Source of the DNA: an uncultured Campylobacterota bacterium
GTDB lineage: Bacteria; Campylobacterota; Campylobacteria; Campylobacterales; Arcobacteraceae
Assembly (NCBI GenBank): GCA_903821805.1
Contig: CAIJNA010000163.1
Span: 1 to 40,251 of the forward strand
Length of the DNA: 40,251 nt
Direction: 5' to 3'
Both the position numbers and the translations under genes were made by a program. Below, piece after piece: positions 15,767 through 39,107 of the stretch (within the stretch, counting starts at the first letter, position 1; every line of letters starts with the position of its first letter). The notes under the pieces were generated by a model that saw only the letters and a program-made list of their open reading frames with translations, searched no databases and was not told the origin of the DNA.

Positions 15767-16201
15767 TTATCTATTTAGTTTGAAAGCACTTCTAGACTTT
15801 TCAATCTGTTTCAATTCTTCTTCTTCACTCATAAAATATCTATCAACAGTAGCTGTTGGATTTAAAAATAAAATAACATTATCAATATTTACTTGAAATA
15901 TAGAATAGTATGGAACTTGGCAAATAGAACCAAAATTTTGAGCACCAAAACCAGCTTCAAAAGTTAAATATTTATCATGTAATTGTAAACTTTCAAGTGT
16001 ATAATTTGCCAAAGTAAATAATGTGTATTTTGTAAAATTTTTCTTGATTTCATGTGGTATTTCTGGTGTAAAAGTCATTCCAGATATATTCGCAGTTAGT
16101 CCAAATTCTACATTTTTAAACACAAGAAAATCCAATAATTCTTTTAATTGTTGAGATGTTAAATCCTTATATTCTTTACTCTCTATTAAGTTAGTTATCA
16201 T
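15767..16201 (-). CDS. hypothetical protein, possibly SspB-like
   Basis: 144-aa ORF joined to pabC by an ATGA overlap. The segment LTFEAGFGAQNFGSICQVPYYSIFQV loosely resembles the SspB core (ARFGG...VP..AV..IY). This is a weak pattern match only. Confidence 0.4.
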   Translation of the reverse strand: MITNLIESKEYKDLTSQQLKELLDFLVFKNVEFGLTANISGMTFTPEIPHEIKKNFTKYTLFTLANYTLESLQLHDKYLTFEAGFGAQNFGSICQVPYYSIFQVNIDNVILFLNPTATVDRYFMSEEEELKQIEKSRSAFKLNR

Positions 16202-16782
16202 TTTTGATTCCTTGTTAGATCTATTTTAAAGTTATCTATTATATCAAAATCAATCATAGCATTTAATAATCCGATTTTGTTTGCATTGAGCAACATATCA
16301 ATATCAATATCTTCCTCTAGCAGTAATTCTTCATCAATATATCTCGCCCTTGTTGTACCATGAAGTATTGGTTTTTTTGGTGTCATCCATCTATTTTTGT
16401 ATAGAATTGCAATATTTGCAATAGAAGTATCAGTAACTAGATTATTTTTTACAATAATAATTTCATCGCAATTATCTTTTTTTTGATATAGTTTTTCAAT
16501 ATCATGCCGATCAATATATTTTTTAGAGTACTCGATTGTATCATCGAATACAACTTTAAATGATCTAATTTGTTTTTTGACATATGTGCTGTAATCAATT
16601 TGAATAATATGATTTGAATCATATTGTAACTTACATTTTGTTAGGCATTCTGATGGTGGATAGATATATTCTTCAAGATTGATATTTAGTCCAACAGTCT
16701 TAGCAATCCTTTTTTTGTGATATTCAAGATTGAAAACCTCAAAATCATCACATCTTATTGTCTCAAAGTAAATATTTGTCAT
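16198..16782 (-). CDS. pabC: aminodeoxychorismate lyase-like (class IV aminotransferase fold), short form
   Basis: 194 aa with TDTSIANIAILYKNRWMTPKKPILHGTTRARYI, matching the class IV pattern (N-I-F ... TP ... L-x-G-x-TR). Joined to pabB by an ATGA overlap. Confidence 0.7.
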   Translation of the reverse strand: MTNIYFETIRCDDFEVFNLEYHKKRIAKTVGLNINLEEYIYPPSECLTKCKLQYDSNHIIQIDYSTYVKKQIRSFKVVFDDTIEYSKKYIDRHDIEKLYQKKDNCDEIIIVKNNLVTDTSIANIAILYKNRWMTPKKPILHGTTRARYIDEELLLEEDIDIDMLLNANKIGLLNAMIDFDIIDNFKIDLTRNQK

Positions 16783-17959: not shown

Positions 17960-18349
17960 ATGGAACATATGGATTTTGCGCATCCTTACTTTGGAGCATT
18001 TGTAATGTTTGTTGTTACATTTGTCGCATTTACTGCAACTACTATGGCATCAAGGTTTATTAGTAGAAAGCTTGCAAGACTTGATACAGAAAAATTGAAA
18101 TGTACTATTTACGAGTGTGGACCAGAGGTAACAAAGCAGCCAAATACAATATCGGTTCAGTTTTATTTGATGGCATTATTATTTATACTTTTTGATGTAG
18201 AGATTATATTTATGTTCCCTTGGGCTGTAGATTTCAAGGTTCTTGGTATGTTTGGTTTTATTGAAATGATTTTATTTATCGTATTGCTTACAATTGGGTT
18301 TGTATATGCATGGAAAAAAGGAGCTTTAGAATGGCACAGCATGAAGTAA
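17960..18349 (+). CDS. nuoA: NADH-quinone oxidoreductase subunit A
   Basis: 129 aa with three TM helices and the YECG motif (IYECGPEV). Strong GGGGGAG RBS. First gene of the nuo cluster. Confidence 0.93.
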
Positions 18350-18840
18350 AATATTTATCAAATGGCGGTGCTCCTATAGCACTTACGACTGTCGATAAGT
18401 TAGTAAATTTTGGAAGAAGTAATTCACTTTGGCCTATGACATATGGTTTAGCATGTTGTGCTATTGAAATGATGGCAACAGGTGCTTCGAGATTTGACTT
18501 TGATAGATTTGGTACTATTTTTAGAGCAAGTCCAAGACAATCTGATGTGCTTGTTATAGCTGGAACTCTTACAAAAAAACATGCAGAGTTTTTAAGAAGA
18601 CTTTATGATCAAATGCCAGATCCTAAATGGGTAATTAGTATGGGGAGTTGTGCTAACACTGGTGGAATGTTTAATACATATGCAACTGTTCAGGGCGCAG
18701 ATAGAGTTATTCCTGTTGATATCTATCTTCCAGGATGTGCACCAAGACCTGAAACATTACAATTTGCACTTATGATGCTACAAAAGAAAATTAGAAGCCA
18801 ACCATGTAGTTTGGCGCAAAAAGCAAAAAGGTTAATCTAA
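18331..18840 (+). CDS. nuoB: NADH-quinone oxidoreductase subunit B
   Basis: N2-cluster motifs [15 protein letters not shown] and PGCAP are present. The ATG at 18331 is preferred over the track start at 18310 because AAGGAG (18318-18323) sits 7 nt upstream. Confidence 0.93.
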
Positions 18841-19661
18841 TGAGAGCTTATCAACCAAAAGACAATGTACAAAAAAAATCATATTACAACGATAGATTTT
18901 ATGTTACACCAACACTAGCAAGAAAATCAGTTTATGATGATTCAGTTTTTAGTAACGATTATTTAAGTTTAACAAAGAAAGTAACAGTAAATGATGTTTA
19001 TCTAGAACTTGATCATTTGGTTCTATGGATAAATCCTGAAGATAACATTTCAGCAATTAAGCATGCAAAAGAAATATTAGCTTATGATTTTTTAGTTGAA
19101 CTTAGTGCAATTGATTATGTGGCAACAAAAGGTGGATTTGAAATTTTTTATGAAATGTTATCAACTTCTAAAAGAAAAAGACTTAGAATTAAGACTTTTA
19201 TTAAAGAAGGAACAGCAATTGAGTCTGTGAATCCGTTATTTAGAATGGCAGACTGGAGTGAGCGTGAAATGTTCGATATGTTTGGAATAGTTGCAAATAA
19301 TCATCCATATATGAAAAGAATTCTTATGCCAGAAGATTGGCATGGGCACCCACTTTTAAAAACTTATCCACTTCATGGTGATGAGGCTGCAAGATGGTAC
19401 GAAGTCGATAAAATTTTTGGACGAGAGGCTAGAGAAACTATAGGTGAAGAGCAAAGAGATTCTGCAGCTATAGATAGATATGACACAACAAGATTCTCAA
19501 GACTTGGACACGAAGTTCCATTTGGAACTGACATTAGAGATGGTAAAGAACCAGATACCCCTGTTAGATATCAAGAAGATGGAGGAATTAAAATCTTCGG
19601 AATACCTCTTGTTACACCATTTGATGAGATAGAAACTAAAAATTTAAAAGAGAGAAGATAA
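18840..19661 (+). CDS. nuoC: NADH-quinone oxidoreductase subunit C
   Basis: 273 aa with the [11 protein letters not shown] signature. TAATG overlap with nuoB. Confidence 0.92.
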
Positions 19662-19662
19662 C

Positions 19663-20889
19663 ATGCAACAAACAAATAGATTAAAACCTTTTTTTGAAAA
19701 TATAGCATTTGACAGAGAAGACAATACTATGGTTGTAAACTTTGGTCCTCAGCATCCATCAGCACATGGACAGCTTCGACTTATTCTTGAGCTTCAAGGA
19801 GAAGAAGTTGTAAAAGCCCATCCAGACGTTGGATACCTTCATAGGGGTATGGAAAAAATGGGTGAAAACATGATTTATAACGAATTTTTGCCTACAACAG
19901 ACAGAATGGATTATATAGCAGCGACTTCAAATAATTATGGATATGCACTGGCAGTTGAAAAACTTTTAGGTATTGAGGCGCCAAGAAGAGCTGAAGTTAT
20001 AAGAACTATGTTGCTTGAAATAAATAGAATTATTTCTCACTTGTTTTGGCTTGCAACACATGCACTAGATGTTGGTGCAATGTCAGTATTTCTTTATGCA
20101 TTTAGAGAAAGAGAATTCGCGATGGATTTAATGGAAGATTATTGTGGAGCTAGACTTACTCATAGTAGCGTTAGAATAGGTGGTGTTCCATTAGATTTAC
20201 CAAAAAATTGGATTGAAGATTTAGAAAAATTTATGGTAGTTCTTGATGAGCAAATCAAAATTTATGAGGGCCTTCTAACAACAAATAGAATCTGGAGAAT
20301 GAGACTAGAAAATATTGGTGTTATTCCAACAGAAATGGCGAAGTCTTGGGGATGTACAGGATTAGTACTTAGAGGAAGTGGTGTTCAATGGGACTTAAGA
20401 AAAGAGATGCCTTACGGACTTTATCCAGAATTAGAATTTGATGTTCCGTTCTCTGATACTTGTGACAGCTATGGAAGATATAAACTTCATATGGAAGAGA
20501 TGTACCAATCTATGAGAATTTTAAAACAATTAATTCCTATGTATCACGAAAGTGAATCTAAATTAATGGCTCATGCTCCTCAGTATATTTCATCTTCAAA
20601 AGAAGAAATGATGACTCAAAATTATTCACTAATGCAACACTTTGTTCTTGTGACTCAAGGTATGAGACCACCAGTCGGAGAAGTTTATGTTGCTACAGAA
20701 TCACCAAAAGGTGAATTGGGTTATTACATTGTAAGTGATGGAAGTCCTTATCCATACAGAATGAAATTAAGAGCACCAAGCTTCTGGCATACAGGAATAT
20801 TGCAAGATCTACTTCCAGGGCATCAGCTTGCCGATGTTGTTACTATTATTGGTAACCTTAATATAGTTTTCGGCGAAATAGATAGATAA
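19663..20889 (+). CDS. nuoD: NADH-quinone oxidoreductase subunit D
   Basis: 408 aa with [11 protein letters not shown] and the C-terminal NIVFGEIDR signature. Confidence 0.95.
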
Positions 20890-20901
20890 TTAGGGGTTAA
20901 A

Positions 20902-21168
20902 ATGAAAAGATATGATTTAAGAGAACACGGAAATAGTTTTATCCCTAGACTTACTGAGCTTATGAATAACGAAATAGTTGAAGATGAGAATGGCATATTT
21001 TTATTCGAGATTGGGGATTTTTCTCCAATTCAAGAAGTTTCGGATGTAGTTAAAGCAAATAATTGGACATTAATGAATTCAATCAAATTCAATGAAGTTG
21101 ATTGGACTGTTGTTATTAAAAAAACGCAAGACCAATCTCTTATTGTAGAGACTTCTGAAGAAGAATAG
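20902..21168 (+). CDS. Cys-free 88-aa protein occupying the nuoE position
   Basis: The ORF lies between nuoD and the nuoF-position gene with a GGGG RBS. It contains no cysteine, so it cannot ligate the NuoE 2Fe-2S cluster. The position is analogous to the small non-NuoE proteins of the Campylobacter and Helicobacter nuo operons. Confidence 0.7.
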   Translation: MKRYDLREHGNSFIPRLTELMNNEIVEDENGIFLFEIGDFSPIQEVSDVVKANNWTLMNSIKFNEVDWTVVIKKTQDQSLIVETSEEE

Positions 21169-21176
21169 GAAATATT

Positions 21177-23192
21177 GTGAGCAAAGTATATTTTTCAACT
21201 TGGCAAGGAGAGATTGTAGACAATAGAGGCGCTGCATCTATTGAAGATTGGAAAGAATCATCTGCGAAATTGCCAATGGAGTATGATAAAGATAATCATA
21301 CGAAAGCGTTTGTTGGTTGGGATGGATTTGCACTTTTTACAGCTGATGTTGATGTTGTAAAATTAGCAGTTAATTATGCAAAACAATATCAAGAATATAG
21401 TGAAATGTGTGGAAGATGTGCACCTGGAAGATGGGGTGGACGAATACTTTATGATATGTTGGACAAAATCGCAAGGGGTGAAGGTGAGCATAGTGATCTT
21501 GCGCATCTGAATGAAATAAGTGACACTATGATGGTAACTAGCAAGTGTGAAATTGGGAAAACTGTTCCGGTTCCAATCTTGCAAATGATTAAATATTTTA
21601 ACAATGAATTTAAAAGACTAATTGATACAAAAACAGCTTCACCTTGGTATAACATAGATGATGAAAGATATATTGCAAATATAACTGCACCATGTACTGA
21701 CATGTGTCCTGCACATATTGATATTCCTGCATATATTGAGGGCGTAAGAGATCTGGATTTTAGTGCAACATTGAGTGCAACTAGAGATCATATGCCATTA
21801 GCTCATACATGTGGAAGAGTTTGTCCTCATCCATGTGAAACTGCTTGCAGAAGATCAAATCTCGATGAGCCTATATCTATTATGGAGCTTAAGCGAATAG
21901 GTGCTGATTATGAAACAGATCATAAGCTTGATTGGATTCATCCCTCAAAACCTCAAAAACCTAGAAATGATGGTAAAAAAGTTGCTATTATAGGAGCTGG
22001 ACCAGCTGGACTTACAGCAGCTTACTATTTGGGATTACAAGGAATTAATGTAACAATTTTTGAAGAACTACCAGTTCTTGGTGGTGAAGTTACTGTTGGT
22101 GTTCCAGAATATCGTATGCCATTTGATAAGTATAACGAAGACATCAAGTTGATAACTGAATTAGAAACAGTTGAGGTTATAGCTAACCATAGAGTTACAG
22201 CTGAAAGATTAAAAGAGATTGAAGCAGACTATGATGCTACACTTCTTGGATTTGGCGCTAGACTTTCAAAAGCAATTAGATGTGAAAATGAAAATCCAAA
22301 TCATGAAGGCTATTGGGGAGCTATCGCAATGCTTGATAAAGTTAATCTTTGGACAAAATTTCAAATTGGCAGCCCAGCTTCGAATGAATTAAAAGACAAA
22401 ACTGTTGTTTGTGTTGGTGGTGGATTTACTTCAATGGATGTTGTAAGATGTAGTATTAGAGAAGGTGCTAAAAGAGTTGTAATGCTTTATCGAAGAGATG
22501 AAAAAACAATTATTAAAAACACTACACTTGAGGAATATACTGAAGCTGTTGAAGAAGGTGTTGAGTTCGTTTTTCATAGCGCGATCGATACAATTAGGGA
22601 TGAAAATGGTGTAATTAAATCACTATTAGTAAATCAATACGAGCTTGTTCCAGATCCAAATGGAGGAAGAGCTGAGCTTGTAAAAAGAGATGATGGGGAT
22701 TTTGAAATTGAATGCGACTATTTAATTCCAGCAGTTTCTCAAAGTTCAGATTTGCAGATTCTTCCAAAAGAATGGGAGTTAACAATGACATCATGGGGAA
22801 CTTTACAGACTAATGGTAAAGACTTCATGACAAGTAGACCTGGACTGTTTGCAGCAGGTGATTGTGAATACGGACCTATGACTATTGTTAATGCGGTTGG
22901 ACAAGCAAGACGAGCAGCATCTGTTATCAGTAGATATATTTACGATGGTAAAGTGACTCTAACTGATGAAGAGATCATGGAAGACCATATGAATAAGTTA
23001 AAAGTGTATAACAAAAAAGAAAAAATCACAGGTTGGATGGCAGGACTTCCAAGGGAAGTTAGTGAAAAAGCACCAACTGAAATTAGAAAACACAATAATA
23101 TGGAAGTAAATTTTGGTTTCACTGCAGAAGAAGCGCAAGCAGAAGCCGAAAGATGCATGAGATGTTATTACCTTGGGATGGTGGCCATATGA
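21177..23192 (+). CDS. fusion protein: NuoF C-terminal FeS-domain remnant + GltD/NfnB-like NAD(P)H-dependent FeS flavoprotein (occupies nuoF position)
   Basis: GTG start at 21177 with AGGA 6 nt upstream. Residues ~60-145 align to the NuoF N3 domain (SEMCGRCAPGRWGG ... SKCEIGKTVPVPILQMIKYF). Residues ~170-230 carry the GltD-type FeS motifs CTDMCP and CGRVCPHPCETAC. There is a GAGPAG FAD Rossmann (KVAIIGAGPAGLTAAYYL), a second dinucleotide fold (VVCVGGGFTSMDVVRC ... VVMLYRR) and GLFAAGDC. The stop overlaps the next ATG (ATGA). Confidence 0.85.
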   Translation: MSKVYFSTWQGEIVDNRGAASIEDWKESSAKLPMEYDKDNHTKAFVGWDGFALFTADVDVVKLAVNYAKQYQEYSEMCGRCAPGRWGGRILYDMLDKIARGEGEHSDLAHLNEISDTMMVTSKCEIGKTVPVPILQMIKYFNNEFKRLIDTKTASPWYNIDDERYIANITAPCTDMCPAHIDIPAYIEGVRDLDFSATLSATRDHMPLAHTCGRVCPHPCETACRRSNLDEPISIMELKRIGADYETDHKLDWIHPSKPQKPRNDGKKVAIIGAGPAGLTAAYYLGLQGINVTIFEELPVLGGEVTVGVPEYRMPFDKYNEDIKLITELETVEVIANHRVTAERLKEIEADYDATLLGFGARLSKAIRCENENPNHEGYWGAIAMLDKVNLWTKFQIGSPASNELKDKTVVCVGGGFTSMDVVRCSIREGAKRVVMLYRRDEKTIIKNTTLEEYTEAVEEGVEFVFHSAIDTIRDENGVIKSLLVNQYELVPDPNGGRAELVKRDDGDFEIECDYLIPAVSQSSDLQILPKEWELTMTSWGTLQTNGKDFMTSRPGLFAAGDCEYGPMTIVNAVGQARRAASVISRYIYDGKVTLTDEEIMEDHMNKLKVYNKKEKITGWMAGLPREVSEKAPTEIRKHNNMEVNFGFTAEEAQAEAERCMRCYYLGMVAI

Positions 23193-25447
23193 GCGAAAAA
23201 ATAGAACACAGAGGAAAACCAATAAGTATTACAATTGATGGTAAAGTTTGTGATGGAGTTTATGGTGAAACAATCTTACAAATAGCCAGAAAAAACGATA
23301 TCTATATCCCAACAATGTGTTATTTACCAAAAGTTTCTCCGATTGCAAGCTGTAGAATGTGTGCAGTTAAAGTTGTAGGGGTTGATGGCAATATTTTAAG
23401 TTGTCAAGAAAAAGCTGTAAATGGCGCGGTTGTTACAACTAATAATGATGAATTAACTCATCACAGAACAAATATTATGAAGTTATATGATGTTAATCAT
23501 CCTTTGCAATGTGGTGTTTGTGATAAAAGTGGTGAGTGTGATTTACAAAATAAAACATTAGAATTTAAAGTAGATAGTCAAGAGTTTGCAATTAGAGACT
23601 TGAACCGTAAACAAAAAAAATGGGGCGTTTTGGGATACGATCCAAGTCTTTGTATTATGTGTGAAAAATGTGTACATACTTGCAATGAGATAATAGGAAC
23701 AGCAGCACTTTATATAAAACCAGGTGGGTATAAATCTACAATTGATATTAAAATGAGCAGATGTGAACAATGCGGAGATTGTATATCCGTATGCCCTGTT
23801 GGAGCATTGGTTTCAAATCCGTATAAATATACATCAAATGCATGGGAAAGCACCCAGATTCCAGCAACATGTAGCCATTGCAGTAGCGCATGCGCTCTAA
23901 TTTATGATGTGAAAAATAATGAAAAAATCATGAGAGTAAAAAATGATTTTGAATTTTCTTCACTTTGTGGAGCTGGAAGATTTGGATTTGAATATGAAAA
24001 TAAAAACACAAATAAATCAAAAGAAGAGTTTGAAACAGCACTTAATGCAATAAAAACTTGTGAAACAATTAGATTTAATTCTTACATTACCAATGAAGAA
24101 GCAATGATTTTGCAAACATTGAAAGAAAAATTAGGAATAAAGCTTGTCAATGAAGATGCTTATAATTATCAATCATTCCTAAGAACGTATGCTTTGGCAG
24201 CAGGAACGAATCTTTATAGTGCAAGCAACAGAACTATTCAAAATAGTGATGCCATTATCATGATTGGTACAAGAATAAGCAGGGATAATCCTGTTGTGAA
24301 ATATAGTGTAAATATAGCAACAAAGAAAAAAAGAGCTGAATTTATATATATGCATCCGATTGATGATATAGCTTTAGCCAATAAATATACACAATTTGTT
24401 AAATATGAGGTTGGCAGTGAAGAGGCTGTTTTGGCAATGCTTTGTAAATATTTTGTATTAAATGCGCCACAAGAAATAACTTCATTTATAGATGATCTTG
24501 ATATTGGGTATTTAAGCGGTGAGTCAAGTGTTGGCGAAGAGGAAATTGAAGCCATTAAAACTAGATTTATTAGAAGAAAAGAAAAATCAATAATTATTGG
24601 AAGTGATATTTATGGTCACCCAAATGCTACGAATATTGCGAAAATGGTTGCAATTCTTGAGCAGTATGGAAACTTTAAAGTTCTTTTAATTCCAACATTT
24701 ACAAATACTTTAGGTGTTAGTTTAATATGTGATCTTGATAAGGTTGCAACTGGAAAAGTTCTTGGATACAACGAACTAGGAGATTTTACGTTTTCAAATG
24801 ATGGTAATGGTGATTTTAATATACCAGCATTAAATCAACAAGAAGGTACTTTTACTTCTTTGGACATGCAGGTCGTAAATACAAATGCAGCTTTACCATT
24901 TGATGGACCTTGCCTAAATAATTTTGCAAATGAAATTTTAGACATACATCAAAAACATACTATAAATTATACTAGTTTATTGGGCTTAATTAAAGAATTC
25001 AAGCCTATTGCATTTGATGATTTTAAAAATGGATTTGACAAGTACGGTAATGATTTAAGAGGTTACGAATTGAATAGATTTAATACAACAACTTCAAATC
25101 AATTACCAGATGATATAACACCTCTTGATACGTTTAATGGAAGTGTTATCTATAGATGTGAGCCGCTTCATCAATTCAATAAAGCAACTGGAAAATCGCT
25201 ACTTCTTCAGTCTGATACACACTTAAGAGGAAGCGCTTCTTTTGCAACTGCTGCAAAGATTAAAGCTGGTGATAAAGTAAATATAATTTACGGAAATCAA
25301 ATAAAAACAAAAATGTTTAAAATAGATACAACAATAAAAGGTACTGTTGCACTTTATCCTACGTTTGACGATGGATTAAGTGATGATTTGATACCTTTGG
25401 GATATAGATTTAAAAGAGTAAAAATAGAAAAGGTTGCTGAATTATGA
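23189..25447 (+). CDS. nuoG: NADH-quinone oxidoreductase subunit G paralog 1 (retains N7-like Cys motif)
   Basis: The ATG at 23189 (MSEKIEHRG...) is preferred over 23153 because it forms an ATGA overlap with the upstream stop. Motifs present: the 2Fe-2S pattern CX10CX2CX13C, N5 (HPLQCGVCDKSGEC), CIMCEKCVHTC, CEQCGDCISVCP, and CSHCSSAC-X24-C (N7-like). There is also a molybdopterin-oxidoreductase-like C-terminal part. Confidence 0.85.
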   Translation: MSEKIEHRGKPISITIDGKVCDGVYGETILQIARKNDIYIPTMCYLPKVSPIASCRMCAVKVVGVDGNILSCQEKAVNGAVVTTNNDELTHHRTNIMKLYDVNHPLQCGVCDKSGECDLQNKTLEFKVDSQEFAIRDLNRKQKKWGVLGYDPSLCIMCEKCVHTCNEIIGTAALYIKPGGYKSTIDIKMSRCEQCGDCISVCPVGALVSNPYKYTSNAWESTQIPATCSHCSSACALIYDVKNNEKIMRVKNDFEFSSLCGAGRFGFEYENKNTNKSKEEFETALNAIKTCETIRFNSYITNEEAMILQTLKEKLGIKLVNEDAYNYQSFLRTYALAAGTNLYSASNRTIQNSDAIIMIGTRISRDNPVVKYSVNIATKKKRAEFIYMHPIDDIALANKYTQFVKYEVGSEEAVLAMLCKYFVLNAPQEITSFIDDLDIGYLSGESSVGEEEIEAIKTRFIRRKEKSIIIGSDIYGHPNATNIAKMVAILEQYGNFKVLLIPTFTNTLGVSLICDLDKVATGKVLGYNELGDFTFSNDGNGDFNIPALNQQEGTFTSLDMQVVNTNAALPFDGPCLNNFANEILDIHQKHTINYTSLLGLIKEFKPIAFDDFKNGFDKYGNDLRGYELNRFNTTTSNQLPDDITPLDTFNGSVIYRCEPLHQFNKATGKSLLLQSDTHLRGSASFATAAKIKAGDKVNIIYGNQIKTKMFKIDTTIKGTVALYPTFDDGLSDDLIPLGYRFKRVKIEKVAEL

Positions 25448-27885
25448 GTGATTTGATTACTGTAAAAATTGACGGCAAAGACTGTCAAGCTAAAGATGGA
25501 GAATATGTATTAAATGTTGCACGAGCAAATGACATATTTATACCTGCAATTTGCTATCTAACAAGATGCTCGCCAACTTTAGCATGTAGATTATGCCTTG
25601 TGGAATCAGGTGGAAAACAAATTTACGCATGTAACGCTAAAGTAAAAGATGGCATGGAAGTTACAACATCTACTGAAAATATTGAAGTTGAAAGACGAGC
25701 AATTATGGAAGTTTATGATGTAAATCATCCTTTGCAATGTGGTGTTTGTGATCAAAGTGGAGAGTGTGAACTTCAAAACTATACACTTTATATGGGTGTT
25801 GATAAACAAAACTATGCAGTAAAAGATGTTTTAAGAGATACTAAAGATTGGGGTGTTATGAGTTATGACCCGGGTCTTTGTATTGTTTGTGAAAAATGTG
25901 TAACAGTTTGCAAAGATATGATTGGTTCAAATGCATTGAGTACAACTGCTAGAGGTAGTGAAGCTCTTGATAAAAGTTATAAAGACAACATGCCTAAAGA
26001 TGCTTATTCAATGTGGAATAAACTAAATAAAAATCTTATTAGTTTTGACGATGAAAGTTGTATTGATTGTGGTGAATGTATTGCTGTATGTCCAGTTGGA
26101 GCCCTTGTAAGTACAGATTTTAAATACACCACAAATGCATGGGAGCTTGTAAAGGTTCCAGCTGCAAATCCTTTCAGTTCTGATTGTTCATTACTTTATT
26201 ATGAAGTAAAACATAAAAGCATCAAAGATGAAACAAATAAAATCTATAGAGTTACAAATGATTCTCACTATACAAGCTTAAGTGGTGCGGCTAGATTTGG
26301 ATTTGATTATTCAAATGAAGTTGCATCAAAAGATGAGCATGCCTTTAAACAAACTATAGAAGCATTTAAAAGCAGCCAAACAATAATTTTTAATAGTTTT
26401 ATTACAAATGAAGAAGCTTTTATATTGCAAAAAATGAAAAATGAATTAGGATTTAAACTTGTCAATAATGATGCATTTGCATACAAAAGATTCCTATCTA
26501 ATTTCTCTTCAGTATCAGGAAGTACTCTTTATAGTGGAGATTTAAATAAAGTTCATAATAGTAATTTTGTTGTTTCTGTAGGTAGTTATTTCAAATCGGA
26601 TGCACCATCTGTTAGATATGCATTTAATAATTCAATTTCTTTAAATAAAGGTGCTGGACTCTATTTTCATCCACTTGGTGATAGTACTGTTGAAGGATTT
26701 GGCAAAAAAGGAAAAACAATCGAGACAATTTTCCATGCGCCACTATCTGAAGAAGCAATTTTATATCTTATTCTTGATGTATTTGGAAGAAATCTCCCAA
26801 GTGAAATCTCTTCGTATTTAAGTAGTTTAAAATTACAAAAAACAAGAACAATTACAGAGTTAATAAAAGAACAAGTTACTGAAATGGTAAAAGATGAAGA
26901 AACTGGAGAAGAAAAAGAAATAACAAAAGAGGTTTCAAAAAAAGTATCAAAAGAAGAAACTTATTCATCTACTAAATTACTAGAGATGATAGGTTCTGAT
27001 GATACTTTGCTTGAAACAATATCTGCAATGCTTGAGAAAAAAGATACTTTTACATTGATTGTAGGTGAGGATCTGTATCAACATGAAAAAGCAGAAAATT
27101 TAGCAAAATTGTGTGGATTAATTGAAAAATATACATCTTTTGATGTTGTTATTATTCCTAGCTCAACAAATACTTTGGGAGTTAGTTTACTTTGTGATTT
27201 AGATGAAGCTCCAATCGGAAAAACTATTGGTTATAATATGAAAGCTGATTTTGAAATTAGTGCACTTGGTGATGGAATGCTTGATATGCCTACGCTAAAT
27301 CAGCAAGAAGGAACTTTTGTAACAATTAACAAAAGAGTTGTGCCTACAAATGCAGCAATCAAATATCACGGTTACGAATTAAATGATATTGCAAATGAAC
27401 TTTTAGCTAAAAAAACAAAATATACTGTCGACCATACTTCTAATTTATTAAATAAAATTGCATTTGAAAATCTTGAAAATCATTTTACGAACTCAATGGA
27501 TGAAAGAAGAGGATATTTATTAGATGCACAAAGTATAGCTTCAAATGATATGGTTGAAAATGCAAGTGAATTGAAAATGGAAGGAACTATTATTTATAAT
27601 GCTAATCCTATAAATCAATTCAATGAATTTACAAGCAAAGCAAAACAGTTACAACAAGAGATAACAGCATTATATGTTTCTAGTGAGTATTTAACTAAAC
27701 TTGAATTAAATAATGGAGATTTGGTAAACATATCAACTTCAAATGGATCAGTTCAGCTTCCAGTAATGATTGATAATCAACTTGTTGGTGAAATTTCTTA
27801 TGTTCCAACATTTGAAAAAAATAGCGAAACTAAAAACTTATTTGCAAATTATAGATTTATAAACGCAAATTTAACAAAGGTGTAA
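25444..27885 (+). CDS. nuoG: NADH-quinone oxidoreductase subunit G paralog 2 (N7 motif lost)
   Basis: 813 aa, joined to paralog 1 by an ATGA overlap. It has the same N-terminal cluster motifs (2Fe-2S, HPLQCGVCDQSGEC, CIVCEKCVTVC, CIDCGECIAVCP). The N7 position reads PFSSDCS ... SLSGAARF, with only one Cys left. A Lys/Glu-rich insertion lies around EETGEEKEITKEVSKKVSKEE. Confidence 0.85.
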   Translation: MSDLITVKIDGKDCQAKDGEYVLNVARANDIFIPAICYLTRCSPTLACRLCLVESGGKQIYACNAKVKDGMEVTTSTENIEVERRAIMEVYDVNHPLQCGVCDQSGECELQNYTLYMGVDKQNYAVKDVLRDTKDWGVMSYDPGLCIVCEKCVTVCKDMIGSNALSTTARGSEALDKSYKDNMPKDAYSMWNKLNKNLISFDDESCIDCGECIAVCPVGALVSTDFKYTTNAWELVKVPAANPFSSDCSLLYYEVKHKSIKDETNKIYRVTNDSHYTSLSGAARFGFDYSNEVASKDEHAFKQTIEAFKSSQTIIFNSFITNEEAFILQKMKNELGFKLVNNDAFAYKRFLSNFSSVSGSTLYSGDLNKVHNSNFVVSVGSYFKSDAPSVRYAFNNSISLNKGAGLYFHPLGDSTVEGFGKKGKTIETIFHAPLSEEAILYLILDVFGRNLPSEISSYLSSLKLQKTRTITELIKEQVTEMVKDEETGEEKEITKEVSKKVSKEETYSSTKLLEMIGSDDTLLETISAMLEKKDTFTLIVGEDLYQHEKAENLAKLCGLIEKYTSFDVVIIPSSTNTLGVSLLCDLDEAPIGKTIGYNMKADFEISALGDGMLDMPTLNQQEGTFVTINKRVVPTNAAIKYHGYELNDIANELLAKKTKYTVDHTSNLLNKIAFENLENHFTNSMDERRGYLLDAQSIASNDMVENASELKMEGTIIYNANPINQFNEFTSKAKQLQQEITALYVSSEYLTKLELNNGDLVNISTSNGSVQLPVMIDNQLVGEISYVPTFEKNSETKNLFANYRFINANLTKV

Positions 27886-27888
27886 AAG

Positions 27889-28851
27889 ATGGATAATGAT
27901 ATATTAATGACTATTTTAAAAGTTGTTGTAGTTCTTTTAGTATTTTCTGCTCTAGCAGGTTTTACGACTTATATTGAAAGAAAAGTTTTAGCATTTATGC
28001 AAAGACGACTTGGGCCTGTTCATGTTGGTCCGTTTGGTTTATTACAAATCGCAGCTGATGGTATTAAGCTATTTACAAAAGAAGATTTCGTTCCGCAAAA
28101 TGCAAATAGAATTATATTTATGGTTGCTCCTATTATAACAGCTGCAACAGCTTTTATAGCTATGAGTGCTGTTCCTTTTATTCCAGGAGTTATTATTTCT
28201 GATGTAAATGTTGGGATACTATTTGTTCTTGGTGTAATGGCAACAGGACTTTACGGACCACTTTTAGCAGGTATGGCCCAAGCAAACAAATGGGGACTTT
28301 TGGGTGGCGCTAGAACAGCTATTCAACTTTTATCATATGAGGTTGTAACTGGTCTTTCTATCCTTGCACCTATTATGATGATTGGTAGTTTGAGCTTGAT
28401 TGATATTAATAATTATCAAGCTGGAGGCATTCAAAATTGGTTAATTTGGACACAACCTATTGCATTTTTCTTATTTTTGATTGCTGGATTTGCAGAAACA
28501 AATAGAACTCCTTTTGACCTTTTAGAGCATGAAGCTGAAGTTGTTAGTGGATACGCAACTGAATATTCAGGAATGAGATGGGGTATGTTCTTTATTGGTG
28601 AATATGCAAACTTATTTACTATTTCATTCTTGGTTGCATTAATTTTCCTTGGAGGGTTTAATGATTTAGGATTCATTCCTGGGGCAATTGCAATTCTCTT
28701 GAAAGTAATGTTTTTAATTTTTGTATTCCTTTGGACAAGAGCTTCTTGGCCTCACGTAAGACCTGATCAATTGATGTGGCTTTGCTGGAAAGTATTAATG
28801 CCAATTGGATTATTAAACATAGTAATCACTGGCATAGTGATGATGGTATAA
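27889..28851 (+). CDS. nuoH: NADH-quinone oxidoreductase subunit H
   Basis: 320-aa polytopic membrane protein with ERKVLAFMQRRLGP and TNRTPFDLLEHEAEVVSGY signatures. Confidence 0.95.
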   Translation: MDNDILMTILKVVVVLLVFSALAGFTTYIERKVLAFMQRRLGPVHVGPFGLLQIAADGIKLFTKEDFVPQNANRIIFMVAPIITAATAFIAMSAVPFIPGVIISDVNVGILFVLGVMATGLYGPLLAGMAQANKWGLLGGARTAIQLLSYEVVTGLSILAPIMMIGSLSLIDINNYQAGGIQNWLIWTQPIAFFLFLIAGFAETNRTPFDLLEHEAEVVSGYATEYSGMRWGMFFIGEYANLFTISFLVALIFLGGFNDLGFIPGAIAILLKVMFLIFVFLWTRASWPHVRPDQLMWLCWKVLMPIGLLNIVITGIVMMV

Positions 28852-28861
28852 GGATAATAGT

Positions 28862-29497
28862 ATGAGTTATGAAGATTTAAAAAAACATACAAACGAAAGA
28901 AGCACTGGAACCAATGGTTACGTGCAGGTGGAAATTGAAGAATATCCAAAAACAGGATGGGAAGCTTTTAAACAAGCAATGGGAAGAACATTAAGTATGG
29001 AATTGTTTAAAGGCCTTGGTATTACATTTAAAATAATGAACCAAGCATTATTTAAAAACCAAATGCATACAGTTCAATATCCAATTGAACAAATGCCAAT
29101 TAGCCCAAGATATAGAGCCGTTCATAAACTTTTAGGACTTCTAGAGAGTGGAAATAATAGATGTATCGGATGTGGACTTTGTGAAAAAATTTGTATTTCA
29201 AACTGTATCAGAATGGAAACAAAAATTGATGAAAAATCTAGAAAAGAAGTTATGGAATATTCTATCAATCTTGGAAGATGTATTTTCTGTGGATATTGTG
29301 CTGAGGTTTGTCCTGAGCTTGCGATTGTTCATGGCGGAAGATATGAGAATGCAAGTGAGCAAAGAGCACACTTTGTATTAAAAGATGACTTGCTTACGCC
29401 ATTTGATGCTATTGCACAACAAATTGAATACGATGGATTTGGTGCAATTAGTCCAGATGCTGATCAAAAAATCAAAAAAACACCATTAGCGTATTAA
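28862..29497 (+). CDS. nuoI: NADH-quinone oxidoreductase subunit I
   Basis: 211 aa with two 4Fe-4S motifs, CIGCGLCEKIC and CIFCGYCAEVCP. It has an N-terminal extension relative to E. coli NuoI. Confidence 0.93.
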   Translation: MSYEDLKKHTNERSTGTNGYVQVEIEEYPKTGWEAFKQAMGRTLSMELFKGLGITFKIMNQALFKNQMHTVQYPIEQMPISPRYRAVHKLLGLLESGNNRCIGCGLCEKICISNCIRMETKIDEKSRKEVMEYSINLGRCIFCGYCAEVCPELAIVHGGRYENASEQRAHFVLKDDLLTPFDAIAQQIEYDGFGAISPDADQKIKKTPLAY

Positions 29498-29506
29498 GGA
29501 AAAATA

Positions 29507-30079
29507 ATGTTTGAAGTAGTAGCTTTTTATCTCTTTGCGGTTTTAACAATCGCAATGTTTACAATTACAGTTGTGACTAAGAATGCACTTTATGCCCTTA
29601 GTTCTTTGGCTGCAGGTATGATTTTCATATCAGCATTTTTCTTTTTATTAAATGCAGACTTTTTAGGGGTGGTTCAAATAGTTGTTTATACGGGAGCTGT
29701 TATGGCTCTTTATGCATTTGGTATGATGTTTTTTGATTCAATTAGTGATGTTGAAGAAAAAATTTCAAATCCGAGGCTCGCATTTTTCTTAACAGGGATT
29801 GTTGCTCTTTTGGTTGTGCTTATTTTATTGGCACCAATCGTAAGTTCAAATATTATTGCTTCATACCCAATTCACAATGAGTATAGCAACACAGCTGATG
29901 TAGGACTTATATTATTTACGAAATTTTTAGTTCCTTTTGAAGTTGCAGCAGTTATGCTACTTGTTGCAATGATTGGCGGAATTATTTTAGCTGGTAAAAA
30001 AATGGATACGGATGCAAGTTCTTTGGAAGCAGAGCAAGATCATCACCATTGCGACTTTAATACAAAGGATATCAAATGA
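29507..30079 (+). CDS. nuoJ: NADH-quinone oxidoreductase subunit J
   Basis: 190-aa hydrophobic protein with the VVYTGAVMAL and PFEVAAVMLLVAMIG patterns. Operon position supports the call. Confidence 0.9.
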   Translation: MFEVVAFYLFAVLTIAMFTITVVTKNALYALSSLAAGMIFISAFFFLLNADFLGVVQIVVYTGAVMALYAFGMMFFDSISDVEEKISNPRLAFFLTGIVALLVVLILLAPIVSSNIIASYPIHNEYSNTADVGLILFTKFLVPFEVAAVMLLVAMIGGIILAGKKMDTDASSLEAEQDHHHCDFNTKDIK

Positions 30080-30381
30080 TGGTAGCTTTAAATGATTATT
30101 TAATACTCAGTACAATAATTTTTATGATTGGGTTATTTGGAGTAGTAAAAAGAAAAAACCTATTAATGTTGTTTTTTTCTACAGAAATTATGCTTAATGC
30201 AGTAAATATTGGTTTTGTAGCAATTGGAAAATTCCATCAAGATTTAAGTGGACAAATGTTCGCGTTCTTTATTATTGCTATAGCTGCAAGTGAAGTTGCA
30301 ATAGGACTTGGACTGCTTATTTTATGGTTTAAGAGAAAAAATACAATCGATCTAGATTCGCTACAACAAATGAGAGGTTAG
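30076..30381 (+). CDS. nuoK: NADH-quinone oxidoreductase subunit K
   Basis: 101 aa with three TM helices and a conserved Glu in TEIMLNAVN. ATGA overlap with nuoJ. Confidence 0.92.
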   Translation: MMVALNDYLILSTIIFMIGLFGVVKRKNLLMLFFSTEIMLNAVNIGFVAIGKFHQDLSGQMFAFFIIAIAASEVAIGLGLLILWFKRKNTIDLDSLQQMRG

Positions 30382-30383
30382 GA

Positions 30384-32315
30384 ATGGAAAATTATTTATA
30401 TTTAGCATTATTTGCTCCACTTGTTGGGGCACTATTTGCAACATTATTTTCAAATAGTAAAAAAGCACAAATTGTAGGAATAATAACATCATTATTATTG
30501 GCAACATCAATGGTTGCTTCACTTATACTGCTTGCACATGTTTACACAACTGAGCAAATTATTCATGTAAATATGATGGATTGGATATCAATTGGACATG
30601 TTTATATTCCGTTCGGTTTTATAGTTGATCAGGTTAGCGTAACTATGATGGTTGTAGTTACTATAGTTTCAACAATGGTTCATATTCATTCAAATGGATA
30701 TATGGATCATGATAAATCATTTAATAGATTTTTTGCATGGCTATCTGCATTCGTTTTCTCTATGTTAATACTTGTTATGAGTGATAACTTTGCCGGATTA
30801 TTTATAGGTTGGGAAGGTGTTGGTCTTTGCTCTTGGGGATTAATTGGTTTCTGGTACCATAAGGAAGATATTGCTCATAGTAAAGATCTTACGAAATCTC
30901 CATTTTCAACATTGTCACCATATTCTGCAGTTTCACCTTCATGGGCAGCTAATGAAGCATTTATAATGAATAGAGTTGCGGATCTTGGAATGCTAATCGG
31001 AATGTTCTTAATCTTCTGGAATCTTGGAACTTTACAATATGATGAAGTTTTTGCAAACATTGGTATGCTTAGTCATGAATTAGTTGTTGCTATCGCTATA
31101 TTCTTATTTATAGGTGCAATGGGAAAATCAGCTCAATTTCCTTTTAATACTTGGCTTGCAAATGCAATGGAAGGACCAACTCCAGTTTCTGCACTTATTC
31201 ACGCAGCAACAATGGTTACAGCTGGGGTTTACTTGGTTGTTAGAGCAAATGAAATATTTACTATTGTTCCTGAAGTTGGTTATTTCATAGCTGGACTTGG
31301 AGCATTTGTAGCCATAGGGGCTGCTTCAATGGCATTGGTTGCAACAAATATGAAGAAAATTATTGCATACTCAACATTATCTCAACTTGGATATATGTTT
31401 GTAGCAGCTGGACTTGGAGCTTATTGGGTTGCGTTATTTCACCTTGCTACTCATGCATTCTTTAAATCAGTATTATTCTTAGGTGCAGGAAATGTAATGC
31501 ATGCAATGAATGATGAAATTAATATTAAAAATATGGGTGGACTTAGAAAGCATATGCCATACACAGCATTAATTATGACAGTTGCATCTCTTGCTTTAGC
31601 TGGTATTTTCCCATTGGCAGGATTCTTTTCAAAAGATATGATACTAGAGTCAGCTTTTGCAAATGAAGCTTACATATTATGGACTGTTTTATGGATAACA
31701 GCTGGTTTGACAGCATTTTATTCATTTAGACTTGTGATGTATGTATTTTATGGAAAAGAGAATTACCATAATTTGGGTTATCACCCACATGAGAGTTATG
31801 GTTATGTTATAGCAGCTATGACTCCATTAGCTATTTTAGCAGTTATTGCTGGATGGTTTGAAGAAGAATTTGTTGAATTTATTACTATGTCTCTTCCAGT
31901 TTGGGAAGGTCACCTTGAGCATAATACACATTATATGCTTATTGGAGTTACTAGTGCTATAGCAATTATTGGTGTAGCATTTGCAGTGTTTAAATATCTA
32001 AAAAATGGAACATATTTTAGTTCAAGTATGCATAAAAGATTTTGCTATAAAGTTCTTGCAAATCAATATTATCTTCCTCATTTGTGGGAAAAAGTAGTTG
32101 TTAAGCCTTATTACAAATTGTCTGTGTATTGCTGGAAAAAAGTTGACATGAAAATTATTGATGCAATAGTAGATGGTATTGCAAAAATTATTTATACAGG
32201 TGGAGCAGAAGGTAGAGCAATTCAAACAGGAAATCTATCTAGTGCATTAAAATTAATGGTTGGAGGAGTATTTATTTTACTGACTCTCATATTATTTTTT
32301 GGTTTAACAAAGTAA
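30384..32315 (+). CDS. nuoL: NADH-quinone oxidoreductase subunit L
   Basis: 643-aa antiporter-like subunit with GWEGVGLCSW and GKSAQFPFNTWLANAMEGPTPVSALIHAATMV signatures and a long C-terminal part. Confidence 0.95.
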   Translation: MENYLYLALFAPLVGALFATLFSNSKKAQIVGIITSLLLATSMVASLILLAHVYTTEQIIHVNMMDWISIGHVYIPFGFIVDQVSVTMMVVVTIVSTMVHIHSNGYMDHDKSFNRFFAWLSAFVFSMLILVMSDNFAGLFIGWEGVGLCSWGLIGFWYHKEDIAHSKDLTKSPFSTLSPYSAVSPSWAANEAFIMNRVADLGMLIGMFLIFWNLGTLQYDEVFANIGMLSHELVVAIAIFLFIGAMGKSAQFPFNTWLANAMEGPTPVSALIHAATMVTAGVYLVVRANEIFTIVPEVGYFIAGLGAFVAIGAASMALVATNMKKIIAYSTLSQLGYMFVAAGLGAYWVALFHLATHAFFKSVLFLGAGNVMHAMNDEINIKNMGGLRKHMPYTALIMTVASLALAGIFPLAGFFSKDMILESAFANEAYILWTVLWITAGLTAFYSFRLVMYVFYGKENYHNLGYHPHESYGYVIAAMTPLAILAVIAGWFEEEFVEFITMSLPVWEGHLEHNTHYMLIGVTSAIAIIGVAFAVFKYLKNGTYFSSSMHKRFCYKVLANQYYLPHLWEKVVVKPYYKLSVYCWKKVDMKIIDAIVDGIAKIIYTGGAEGRAIQTGNLSSALKLMVGGVFILLTLILFFGLTK

Positions 32316-32324
32316 GGGGAATAG

Positions 32325-33848
32325 ATGGAACACATTTTATCAATATTAATATTTTTTCCATTATTTGCAGCACTCATAGGATTGCTAGTAGATAAAGAAT
32401 CAATTAGGGCTTACGGTATAGTAATAACATTTGTAGAGTTTTTACTATCTTGCGTTATGTGGGCTGGATACGATTCATCAGCTGGAAGTATTCAATTTAC
32501 TGAATTTATTCCACTTGTTTCACAATTCGGAATATCATACAATTTAGGATTAGATGGTATATCTCTTTTTCTAGTAATTATGACTACATTTATAACAATG
32601 ATCTCATTGATAGGTTTGACTGAAACAAGAAATTTAAAACATATGATTTTATCAGTTCTTGTTTTAGAGATGGCTATGGTTGGGGTTTTTGTTGCATTAG
32701 ATGCTATGATTTTTTATCTTTTCTGGGAATTCTCACTTGTTCCAATGCTTTATTTAATTGGGGCTTGGGGAGGACCTCAAAGAATTTATGCATCTGTTAA
32801 ATTCTTTATTTATACATTTACTGGTTCATTAATTATGCTACTTGGAATGCTTTATTTAGGGTATATTTATTCAGAAGCAACTGGTGTTTGGAGTTTTAAT
32901 CTTCTAGATTGGTATATGTTACAACTTCCACTCGATATGCAATTATGGTTATTTGCAGCATTTTTCTTTGGATTCGCTATTAAAGTTCCTATGGTTCCAT
33001 TTCATACATGGCTTCCATATGCTCATGGACAAGCACCTACAATTGGTTCTGTTATTCTTGCAGCAGTATTGCTTAAAATGGGAACTTATGGTTTTATAAG
33101 ATTCTCACTACCACTTTTTCCTGACGCATCAGTTGAAATGATGATACCAATGGCTATTTTAGGGATTATTGCTATAGTTTATACAGCAATGGTAGCCTAC
33201 GCACAAGAAGATATCAAACAAGTTATAGCTTACAGTTCAGTGTCTCATATGGGTGTAATAATTCTAGGAATTTTTGCATTGAATGTTGAAGGAATAGGTG
33301 GGAGTATTTTCTTAATGATTTCTCATGGAATCGTTTCTGGTGCACTGTTTATGCTTGTTGGTGTTTTGTATGATAGAAAACATACTAAAATGATGAGTGA
33401 ATTTGGTGGATTAGCAAAAGTGATGCCCATGTATGCAACAATATTTGGAATCATGTTAATGGCTTCTGTAGGATTGCCACTTACAATAGGATTTGTTGGA
33501 GAATTCTTGAGCTTACTTGGTTTCTTTGCTGTATCTCCAATTATAACTGCTATAGCAGGTCTTACAATAATTTTAGGTGCAGTGTATATGCTTGTTCTTT
33601 ATAAAAGAACATTCTTTGGACCAATAACAAATGAGTCAAATCTTAAATTAAAAGATTTAAATGGAAGAGAGTATAGTGCTTTAATACCACTTGTTATGCT
33701 TGTTGTTTATTTGGGAATCTATCCAAAGCCTATCTTGGAGCCAGTTGATAAAAGTGTAAAACAAGTTGTACAAATTATGTATATTAAAGCAGTAACTCCA
33801 GAAGCTAAAGAAAAAATAGCTACAGTTAATTCAATAGGAGAGAGATAA
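32325..33848 (+). CDS. nuoM: NADH-quinone oxidoreductase subunit M
   Basis: 507-aa antiporter-like subunit with KVPMVPFHTWLPYAHGQAPT and IAYSSVSHMG motifs. Confidence 0.95.
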   Translation: MEHILSILIFFPLFAALIGLLVDKESIRAYGIVITFVEFLLSCVMWAGYDSSAGSIQFTEFIPLVSQFGISYNLGLDGISLFLVIMTTFITMISLIGLTETRNLKHMILSVLVLEMAMVGVFVALDAMIFYLFWEFSLVPMLYLIGAWGGPQRIYASVKFFIYTFTGSLIMLLGMLYLGYIYSEATGVWSFNLLDWYMLQLPLDMQLWLFAAFFFGFAIKVPMVPFHTWLPYAHGQAPTIGSVILAAVLLKMGTYGFIRFSLPLFPDASVEMMIPMAILGIIAIVYTAMVAYAQEDIKQVIAYSSVSHMGVIILGIFALNVEGIGGSIFLMISHGIVSGALFMLVGVLYDRKHTKMMSEFGGLAKVMPMYATIFGIMLMASVGLPLTIGFVGEFLSLLGFFAVSPIITAIAGLTIILGAVYMLVLYKRTFFGPITNESNLKLKDLNGREYSALIPLVMLVVYLGIYPKPILEPVDKSVKQVVQIMYIKAVTPEAKEKIATVNSIGER

Positions 33849-33850
33849 TT

Positions 33851-39099: not shown

Positions 39100-39107
39100 C
39101 ACAAATC

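Follow-up and report, generated by a model that had tools for sequence, protein, structure and literature searches.

How do electrons enter a respiratory Complex I whose operon lacks canonical NuoE and NuoF and has, in the corresponding positions, a gene for a large flavoprotein and two genes for NuoG? The question is raised by the nuo operon of an uncultured bacterium of the Arcobacteraceae (Campylobacterota; contig CAIJNA010000163.1), contained in a 40,251-nt stretch of DNA (the window) to which all numbering refers. The four genes between nuoD and nuoH, all on the + strand, encode an 88-residue protein in the NuoE slot, a 671-residue flavoprotein termed here F671, and two NuoG paralogs, NuoG-a and NuoG-b. 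We consider it rather probable that this is the operon of a marine Arcobacteraceae bacterium for a full-length ('long-head') Campylobacterota-type Complex I, in which a reversible NADPH:menaquinone arm is mounted on a flavodoxin/ferredoxin-type complex, and that the short head of other Campylobacterota is the derived form. The gene architecture itself has already been described; what is reported here is a rediscovery of a widespread and functionally uncharacterised arrangement. Three points were absent from the literature searched: the shared fate of F671 and the iron-sulfur (FeS) domain of NuoG-a, the apparent NuoG origin of the Campylobacter/Helicobacter NuoF-slot protein together with its seemingly repeated independent reduction, and the predicted StnC-like character of F671.

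Canonical NuoE and NuoF are missing, neither PF01257 nor PF01512 having matched anywhere in the operon. A first-pass annotation, made from the sequence without database searches, had placed four input genes of non-canonical layout between nuoA-D and nuoH-N and had described the last three input genes as chained by ATGA start/stop overlaps. The gene positions were confirmed, and the overlaps at 23189-23192 (F671/NuoG-a) and 25444-25447 (NuoG-a/NuoG-b) are read directly in the sequence. They point to translational coupling of F671, NuoG-a and NuoG-b, and the layout is not a chance arrangement, since 35 loci from other species have their genes in this very order. The 88-residue protein, held in the first-pass annotation to be cysteine-free, not NuoE and akin to the Campylobacter/Helicobacter-type head, is indeed without a single cysteine, and thus without an FeS cluster, and matches both PF16514 (NADH-UOR_E; E 2e-30) and the nuclear magnetic resonance structure of H. 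pylori HP1264 (2LXR; E 3.8e-16).

Relatives of the operon were collected by an alignment scan with NuoG-a/NuoG-b, one genome per species, and the best 80 of at least 578 were kept. Most of these 80 loci are labelled Arcobacteraceae (or its genera) or Sulfurimonas, the highest NuoG-b identity is 70%, and no true Campylobacter or Helicobacter locus is found among them. The window proteins were compared with the 80 loci by tblastn, and 70 loci span nuoD to nuoH; the gene for the 88-residue protein is found in all 70. The long head (F671, full-length NuoG-a and NuoG-b) is found in 35 of the 70 and the short head, with neither F671 nor NuoG-a, in 34, of which 33 have one open reading frame (ORF) of ~260-300 aa between the 88-aa gene and NuoG-b. 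The remaining locus, L076, has a 479-aa, N-terminally truncated NuoG-a and no F671. Full NuoG-a is present in every locus that has F671 (35/35), and F671 shares its retention or loss with the N-terminal, FeS-bearing half of NuoG-a. Among the long-head loci are many from uncultured Arcobacteraceae, that of a metagenome-assembled genome (MAG) labelled Arcobacter nitrofigilis (L066) and most of those sampled from Sulfurimonas; Aliarcobacter, Malaciobacter, Halarcobacter and Poseidonibacter have short heads, as do one Sulfurimonas (L057) and a contig labelled Sulfurovum (L039), so that the long head is not obligatory in the Sulfurimonas and Sulfurovum lineages.

Two loci depart from these patterns. 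The truncated NuoG-a homolog of L076 (L076:8556-9995; Sulfurimonas sp. MAG, JBLIEY010000024.1) is equivalent to residues 245-749, the whole FeS domain being gone, and looks like a snapshot of the reduction of a long head to a short one. At L062:9741-10120 (Arcobacter sp. NORP36 MAG, NVWN01000020.1) the 88-aa gene abuts nuoG at an ATAATGA junction without a NuoF-slot gene, a possible third, minimal head in an assembly whose quality is made uncertain by 12 N in the nuoB region.

What, then, is the small protein that occupies the NuoF slot of short heads? No significant domain was found in a Pfam scan, and such proteins have therefore been annotated as 'hypothetical' or, by position, as 'NuoF'. 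By BLASTP, window NuoG-a is matched by the 479-aa protein of L076 and by every one of the 33 small ORFs in short-head loci. The small ORFs match it in two collinear blocks, at residues ~346-502 (E 1e-32 to 1e-55) and ~640-750; about 130 residues (508-637) are deleted in the surviving short forms. The match to NuoG-b is far weaker, and to F671 there is none by BLASTP. In a fold search the AlphaFold2 (AF2) model of a small protein (predicted local distance difference test, pLDDT, 71) matches FdhF, other molybdopterin enzymes and NuoG/Nqo3. One UniRef entry (P0322, Halarcobacter bivalviorum) is already named NADH:quinone oxidoreductase I 'chain G-like', a sign that the resemblance to NuoG had been seen by at least one annotator, most sources giving hypothetical or NuoF.

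To reach Campylobacter and Helicobacter, representatives were searched with a profile of the small proteins, and the loci were traced by cluster name and contig. Among 1.84 billion representatives this profile gave 287 matches, which include hypothetical proteins of Campylobacter (WP_297573512.1, 230 aa; P0475) and Helicobacter monodelphidis (WP_112051305.1, 259 aa; P0442). Both sit in the order nuoD, PF16514 protein (76 aa), slot protein, nuoG, nuoH, which is the layout of Cj1575c/Cj1574c and HP1264/HP1265. The Campylobacter protein matches window NuoG-a in two blocks (BLASTP E 5e-12 and 5e-10) and the Helicobacter protein at E 5e-18; against NuoG-b, BLASTP found nothing with either. Judged by these alignments, the NuoF-slot protein of short heads, roughly 230-280 aa long, is a truncated copy of NuoG-a in the Arcobacteraceae, one Sulfurimonas, Campylobacter sp. 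and H. monodelphidis. A further homolog of truncated NuoG-a, of 227 aa (P0518, Helicobacter, 'Candidatus H. avistercoris' cluster; profile E 3e-18; L083:6001-6684 and L084:6001-6684), lies outside any nuo operon, beside a DUF7494/TPR protein and housekeeping genes, and was not used as evidence.

The first-pass annotation had supposed a gain, by the epsilon-type head, of a dehydrogenase module and an extra FeS subunit, and here the truncated, non-monophyletic NuoG-a copies point the other way, to loss. NuoG-a aligns with NuoG-b over its whole length, which argues that NuoG-a is a complete duplicate from which the small proteins derive by deletion. In simple neighbor-joining trees of the 267 columns that the small proteins have in common with NuoG-a, they were monophyletic in 0 of 100 bootstraps, values that are rough because some saturated distances were undefined (NaN). 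The small protein of the Sulfurimonas locus L057 is 56% identical to Sulfurimonas NuoG-a, as against 37% to the main small-protein clade, and for the L076 intermediate identity to Sulfurimonas NuoG-a comes to 66%. L006 and L022 show 50-52% identity with Arcobacteraceae NuoG-a, as against 41% with the main small-protein clade. The simplest reading of these comparisons is that there were at least three independent truncations, each of which would have taken out F671, the FeS domain and the internal ~130 residues and kept the identical two segments. Since the slot protein is a truncated NuoG-a and the truncations are not monophyletic, the short head of the C. jejuni/H. pylori type appears to be a long head minus F671 and the FeS half of NuoG-a.

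The first-pass annotation's count of two full-length NuoG-like genes stands: both paralogs exceed the NF006305 cut-off of 591 bits, they share 42% identity, and NuoG-a along its whole length aligns with NuoG-b, with gaps at NuoG-b ~170-204 and ~466-530. In NuoG-a the ligand motifs of five clusters are invariant across 40 sequences (N1b, N5 with His and three Cys, two ferredoxin-type [4Fe-4S] clusters and N7), and in NuoG-b those of four (N1b, N5 and two [4Fe-4S]) are invariant in 80 sequences, the N7 ligands having been lost. The N7 ligands C228...C260 of NuoG-a map to 23870-23968 and the corresponding lost region of NuoG-b to 26170-26290; the single NuoG of H. monodelphidis retains the N7 motif, and that of Campylobacter sp. 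is without it. Campylobacter and Helicobacter NuoG score 626 and 587 bits to NuoG-b as against 454 and 430 to NuoG-a, scores by which NuoG-b is the ortholog of their single NuoG. Pfam Molybdopterin matches in NuoG-a are sub-threshold (25.8 bits over a partial profile). The longest ORF for NuoG-a opens at an in-frame ATG at 23153, 36 nt upstream and inside the end of F671; this start was rejected, as orthologs and the ATGA junction point to the ATG at 23189.

F671 retains only the C-terminal part of NuoF. The NuoF model TIGR01959, 410 positions long, matches it over positions 282-408 with a score of 61 bits, where the cut-off is 559, and no FMN (flavin mononucleotide)/NADH-binding NuoF domain was found in it with Pfam or NCBIfam; with that domain missing, F671 as a degenerate canonical NuoF was rejected. 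Its domains are PF10589 (NADH_4Fe-4S, residues 66-147), PF14691 (Fer4_20, 167-249) and PF07992 (Pyr_redox_2, 267-577), so that Pfam and TIGR01959 agree with the earlier description of a NuoF remnant without the FMN/NADH half, fused to a GltD-type module. Across 38 F671 sequences, invariant residues comprise C78, C81 and C124 of an N3-type motif, C78-x2-C81-x2-G84 ... C124 (C78/C81/G84 at 21408-21428), in which the likewise invariant Gly84 replaces the third N3 Cys; C173, C177, C212, C216, C220 and C224 of Fer4_20; and C660-x2-C663, 9 residues from the C-terminus, which in alignments falls on a CxxC located after the GltD module of NfnC/StnC. The conserved Cys total 11 (three N3-type, six Fer4_20 and two CxxC), for up to three clusters. 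The flavin adenine dinucleotide (FAD) fold has the motif GAGPAG and the NADPH fold the motif GGGFTS; the GGG fold and the 2'-phosphate motif Y438-R439-R440 are invariant in the same 38 sequences. The best PDB matches are NfnC/StnC GltD modules (9bov_A, 8oh5_C; E 1e-65 to 1e-73), and the five best solved matches are NADPH-oxidizing Nfn/Stn-type modules. From its motifs we infer that the substrate of F671 is NADPH rather than NADH; the invariant YRR and the five solved matches make the earlier suggestion of possible NADPH use a reasonable one. Identity to F671 is 76-100% across at least 120 clusters listed, and the named clusters among the matches listed are Arcobacter, Arcobacteraceae, Campylobacterales or Campylobacterota; the listed relatives of the 88-residue protein are similarly close and similarly named. 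The AF2 model of F671 has a mean pLDDT of 64, with residues 167-256 and 601-671 below 50.

The character of the FAD site bears on mechanism. Lys239 of F671 stands where the FAD-proximal cluster takes its non-Cys ligand and aligns with StnC K170 and with a Lys in both NfnC (9bov) and the archaeal Nfn-Bfu (9n5u), whereas bifurcating NfnL (5vj7/5jca) has Glu at this position. By analogy with these enzymes, the FAD of F671 is more likely a plain non-bifurcating dehydrogenase site, and F671 as a bifurcating NfnB was rejected on the presence of Lys in place of Glu.

These observations suggest the following path. NADPH would reduce the FAD of F671, and electrons would pass singly through the F671 clusters to the N-terminal FeS domain of NuoG-a and from there along the NuoG-b/NuoI/NuoB chain to menaquinone. 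The partnership of F671 with the NuoG-a FeS domain is suggested by their 35/35 co-occurrence, by the 34 loci with neither and by L076, which is without both; the wiring of F671 to NuoG-type clusters has a precedent in StnABC, where the non-bifurcating FAD hands electrons from NADPH one by one to the two GltD clusters and on to NuoG-type clusters (PMC10482914). The C-terminal molybdopterin-oxidoreductase-like domains would anchor NuoG-a to the complex, a role indicated by the survival of only those segments as the NuoF-slot protein of short-head operons. The arm would be reversible, oxidizing NADPH for respiration during heterotrophic growth and, in sulfur- or hydrogen-oxidizing autotrophs, producing NADPH from menaquinol at the cost of the proton-motive force. 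The long head probably also keeps the entry site for flavodoxin/ferredoxin that is known from C. jejuni.

Several points weigh against this proposal. The PDB has no Campylobacterota Complex I structure, HP1264 being the sole solved subunit, and membership of F671 and NuoG-a in the complex is predicted; the electron path from NuoG-a to NuoG-b is putative. The N3-type motif of F671 has three Cys only, which makes a cluster there putative and uncertain, and the F671 model, with pLDDT below 50 at the C-terminal CxxC, is too poor to place it. The preference for NADPH is read entirely from motifs, and the Lys/Glu test of bifurcation is one position and an analogy. The placement of L057 and L076 in the 267-column neighbor-joining trees has 81-83% support, and that of L006, L019 and L022 comes from identities alone, a strict clade test giving 1 of 100 bootstraps. 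Cj1574c and HP1265 are represented here by positional equivalents from other Campylobacter and Helicobacter species in place of the authentic sequences.

An unlikely alternative is a bifurcating or dual-output machine (McNichol & Sievert), in which, run in reverse, menaquinol and the proton-motive force would reduce NADP+ at F671 and ferredoxin in obligate coupling, with the bifurcation site in one NuoG, and would supply the reverse tricarboxylic acid cycle (rTCA). It was proposed for the identical S. denitrificans gene set (10.1101/717884), it has its two branches on paper in the F671 arm and the flavodoxin/ferredoxin site, and both the retention of N7 and an extra ferredoxin-type cluster in NuoG-a and the long head of most sampled Sulfurimonas loci speak for it. 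However, the proximal-ligand Lys of F671 resembles the non-bifurcating StnC FAD site (PMC10482914) and not one with Glu, the operon is without an FMN-containing NuoF/HydB-type bifurcating module, neither NuoG has a predicted flavin, and the short head occurs in one Sulfurimonas (L057) and in the Sulfurovum-labelled contig (L039). Less likely again is a soluble NADPH:flavodoxin/ferredoxin oxidoreductase of its own, made up of F671 and NuoG-a and comparable to a two-subunit NADP-dependent formate dehydrogenase with a dead catalytic domain, that is merely co-transcribed with Complex I and feeds or drains the flavodoxin pool, through which Complex I would be reached. The nearest solved relatives of F671 are all soluble enzymes, several sources name its homologs 'formate dehydrogenase (NADP+) beta subunit', and the F671/NuoG-a pair mirrors a flavoprotein with a NuoG-like FeS/molybdopterin subunit. 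Yet the NuoG-a remnant stays between the HP1264-family gene and nuoG even in Campylobacter and Helicobacter, the C. jejuni slot protein is tied to Complex I function in a passage of PMC4178425, NuoG-a overlaps nuoG-b at start and stop, and the operon position is fixed in 35 loci. That NuoG-a is an active formate dehydrogenase-like molybdopterin enzyme, coupling formate or another substrate to NADP+ and quinone, is very improbable and was rejected: its C-terminal fold matches FdhF and other formate dehydrogenases and it retains the N7 (FS0-equivalent) cluster, but its Pfam Molybdopterin matches are sub-threshold, as for cofactor-less NuoG, it scores above the NuoG cut-off, and ~130 residues of the domain can be deleted.

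The favored reading, an NADPH:menaquinone arm on a flavodoxin/ferredoxin-type complex, is best compared first with the Complex I of S. denitrificans, whose prior description removes the novelty that the first-pass annotation had implied for the architecture. There Suden_1824 replaces NuoF, aligns to T. maritima NfnB and conserves the FeS cysteines and the Tyr-Arg-Arg NADPH residues; Suden_1823 is a short and Suden_1822 a long NuoG, 36% identical to each other; the composition is called universal in Sulfurimonas and Sulfurovum; and a reverse-electron-transport hypothesis was put forward for the complex (10.1101/717884). In the same paper the first notice of non-canonical NuoE/F and of two NuoG in chemoautotrophic Campylobacteria is attributed to Weerakoon & Olson (2008). 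The window shares the gene order, the domain content, the YRR motif, the order of short NuoG before long, and the identical two regions missing from the short copy. Sulfurimonas loci are 62-66% identical to the window in F671 and 55-57% in NuoG-b. The host, an Arcobacteraceae bacterium where the paper names Sulfurimonas and Sulfurovum, and the identity of the NuoG pair (42% vs 36%) are all that differs. No biochemical characterisation of the long-head complex was found in the literature searched.

With the flavodoxin-dependent Complex I of C. jejuni and H. pylori the window shares the HP1264-family protein after nuoD, a NuoG of the NuoG-b type, the membrane arm and the lack of canonical NuoE and NuoF. 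In those species, however, the NuoF slot holds a ~230-260-aa protein without a Pfam domain, where the window has F671 and full-length NuoG-a, and the head has neither the flavoprotein nor the second FeS domain. According to a passage of PMC4178425 that draws on Weerakoon & Olson (2008), the C. jejuni NuoF-slot protein mediates flavodoxin input to Complex I. The GltD module of StnABC (8OH5) and NfnABC (9BOV, 9N5U) is like F671 in its proximal-cluster Lys, its CPHPCE motif without the NfnL insertion and the CxxC after the module, and it too is wired to NuoG-type clusters (PMC10482914). In those soluble enzymes, however, the module interrupts a polypeptide of NuoG-like type and supplies a bifurcating module of the NuoF/HydB type that contains FMN, whereas in F671 it is fused to a flavin-less NuoF remnant, is on a polypeptide separate from NuoG-a, and belongs to a membrane Complex I operon without an FMN subunit. 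NfnB/NfnL shares the GltD fold, FAD, NADPH site and two [4Fe-4S] clusters with F671 (E about 1e-60 to 1e-64), but NfnL has Glu as proximal ligand, where F671 has Lys239, and no NuoF-type domain; no NfnA/NfnS partner was found in the operon or among the 40-kb window genes scanned. Relative to a canonical N-module, F671 still shows NuoF's C-terminal N3 domain, and N1b and N4, with four Cys each, and N5 are present in both NuoG, whereas the FMN/NADH domain, the NuoE N1a [2Fe-2S] cluster and the third Cys of N3 are missing and NuoG occurs twice, each copy having one additional ferredoxin-type cluster.

Table 1. Features of the nuo operon and its flanks, with the evidence for each.
Feature	Position	Strand	Evidence
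nuoA	17960-18349	+	NCBIfam, above cut-off
nuoB	18310-18840	+	NCBIfam, above cut-off
nuoC	18840-19661	+	NCBIfam, above cut-off
nuoD (nuoA-D, operon start and Q-module)	19663-20889	+	NCBIfam, above cut-off
88-aa HP1264/Cj1575c-family protein ('NuoE slot')	20902-21168	+	PF16514, PDB 2LXR
F671 (671 aa, GTG start)	21177-23192	+	PF10589, PF14691, PF07992
NuoF C-terminal four-helix (N3-type) domain, F671 residues 20-152	21234-21632	+	TIGR01959, HydB/NuoF C-terminal matches
GltD/StnC-type FAD + NADPH + 2x[4Fe-4S] module, F671 residues 167-590	21675-22946	+	Pfam, PDB matches
C-terminal C660-x2-C663 of F671	23154-23165	+	Invariant; alignment with NfnC/StnC
NuoG-a (752 aa)	23189-25447	+	NF006305, 822 bits
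NuoG-a residues 344-507, first segment kept in short-head slot proteins	24218-24709	+	BLASTP, column mapping
NuoG-a residues 638-751, second kept segment (C-terminal beta-barrel, molybdopterin-oxidoreductase-like fold)	25100-25441	+	BLASTP, column mapping
NuoG-b (813 aa)	25444-27885	+	NF006305, 1090 bits, full length
nuoH, I, J, K, L, M, N (standard membrane arm plus NuoI)	27889-35344	+	NCBIfam and Pfam
Flank ORF without family match	3921-4709	-	
Flank ORF without family match	9172-9804	-	
Flank ORF without family match	13259-13642	+	
Flank ORF without family match	15767-16201	-	
Flank ORF without family match	16198-16782	-	

The operon as a whole covers 17.4 kb of the + strand (17960-35344) in DNA of ~31% G+C and is bordered by a divergent pabB and a convergent glmS. 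The models behind nuoA-D are NF006303, NF005012, NF006304 and TIGR01962, and nuoH and nuoI pass the cut-offs of NF004741 and NF004542; nuoJ-N carry the Pfam domains expected of the arm (PF00499, PF00420, PF00361, PF00662). A scan of the flank ORFs, excluding 38026-40226, for rTCA, flavodoxin and POR/OOR genes returned housekeeping genes only. The flank genes identified are copA, gmk, tsf, rpsB, pyrG, pyrB, ndk, plsX, fabH, pabB, glmS and ung; five flank ORFs of 127-262 aa had no NCBIfam match at E 1e-10 (Table 1).

Sulfidic and hydrothermal habitats are dominated by Campylobacterota, a phylum that also contains major pathogens. The long head is the leading candidate for the source of NADPH, and perhaps of reduced ferredoxin, by reverse electron flow in the rTCA autotrophs of the phylum, and also a candidate for NADPH respiration in heterotrophs. 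By its apparent descent from a second NuoG, the Campylobacter/Helicobacter slot protein, earlier regarded as without homologs, acquires both an origin and a predicted fold, and the retained segments would mark the structurally indispensable parts of NuoG-a. That descent also suggests cultivable long-head species as models for the pathogen enzyme. Together with the joint retention or loss of F671 and the FeS domain of NuoG-a and with the predicted StnC-like flavoprotein, it makes concrete structural and genetic tests possible. A broader proposal joins three statements: that the long head is the ancestral condition of Complex I in Arcobacteraceae, Sulfurimonas, Campylobacter and Helicobacter, that it is a reversible machine between two carriers (NADPH and flavodoxin/ferredoxin) and menaquinone, and that the Cj1574c/HP1265-type protein is the docking stump of a lost second NuoG. 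Taken jointly these are tentative, and we would sooner expect one part to fail than all three to hold. If true, long-head organisms would be a natural, tractable system in which to locate the flavodoxin site and to learn how the rTCA autotrophs of the Campylobacterota obtain low-potential reductant.

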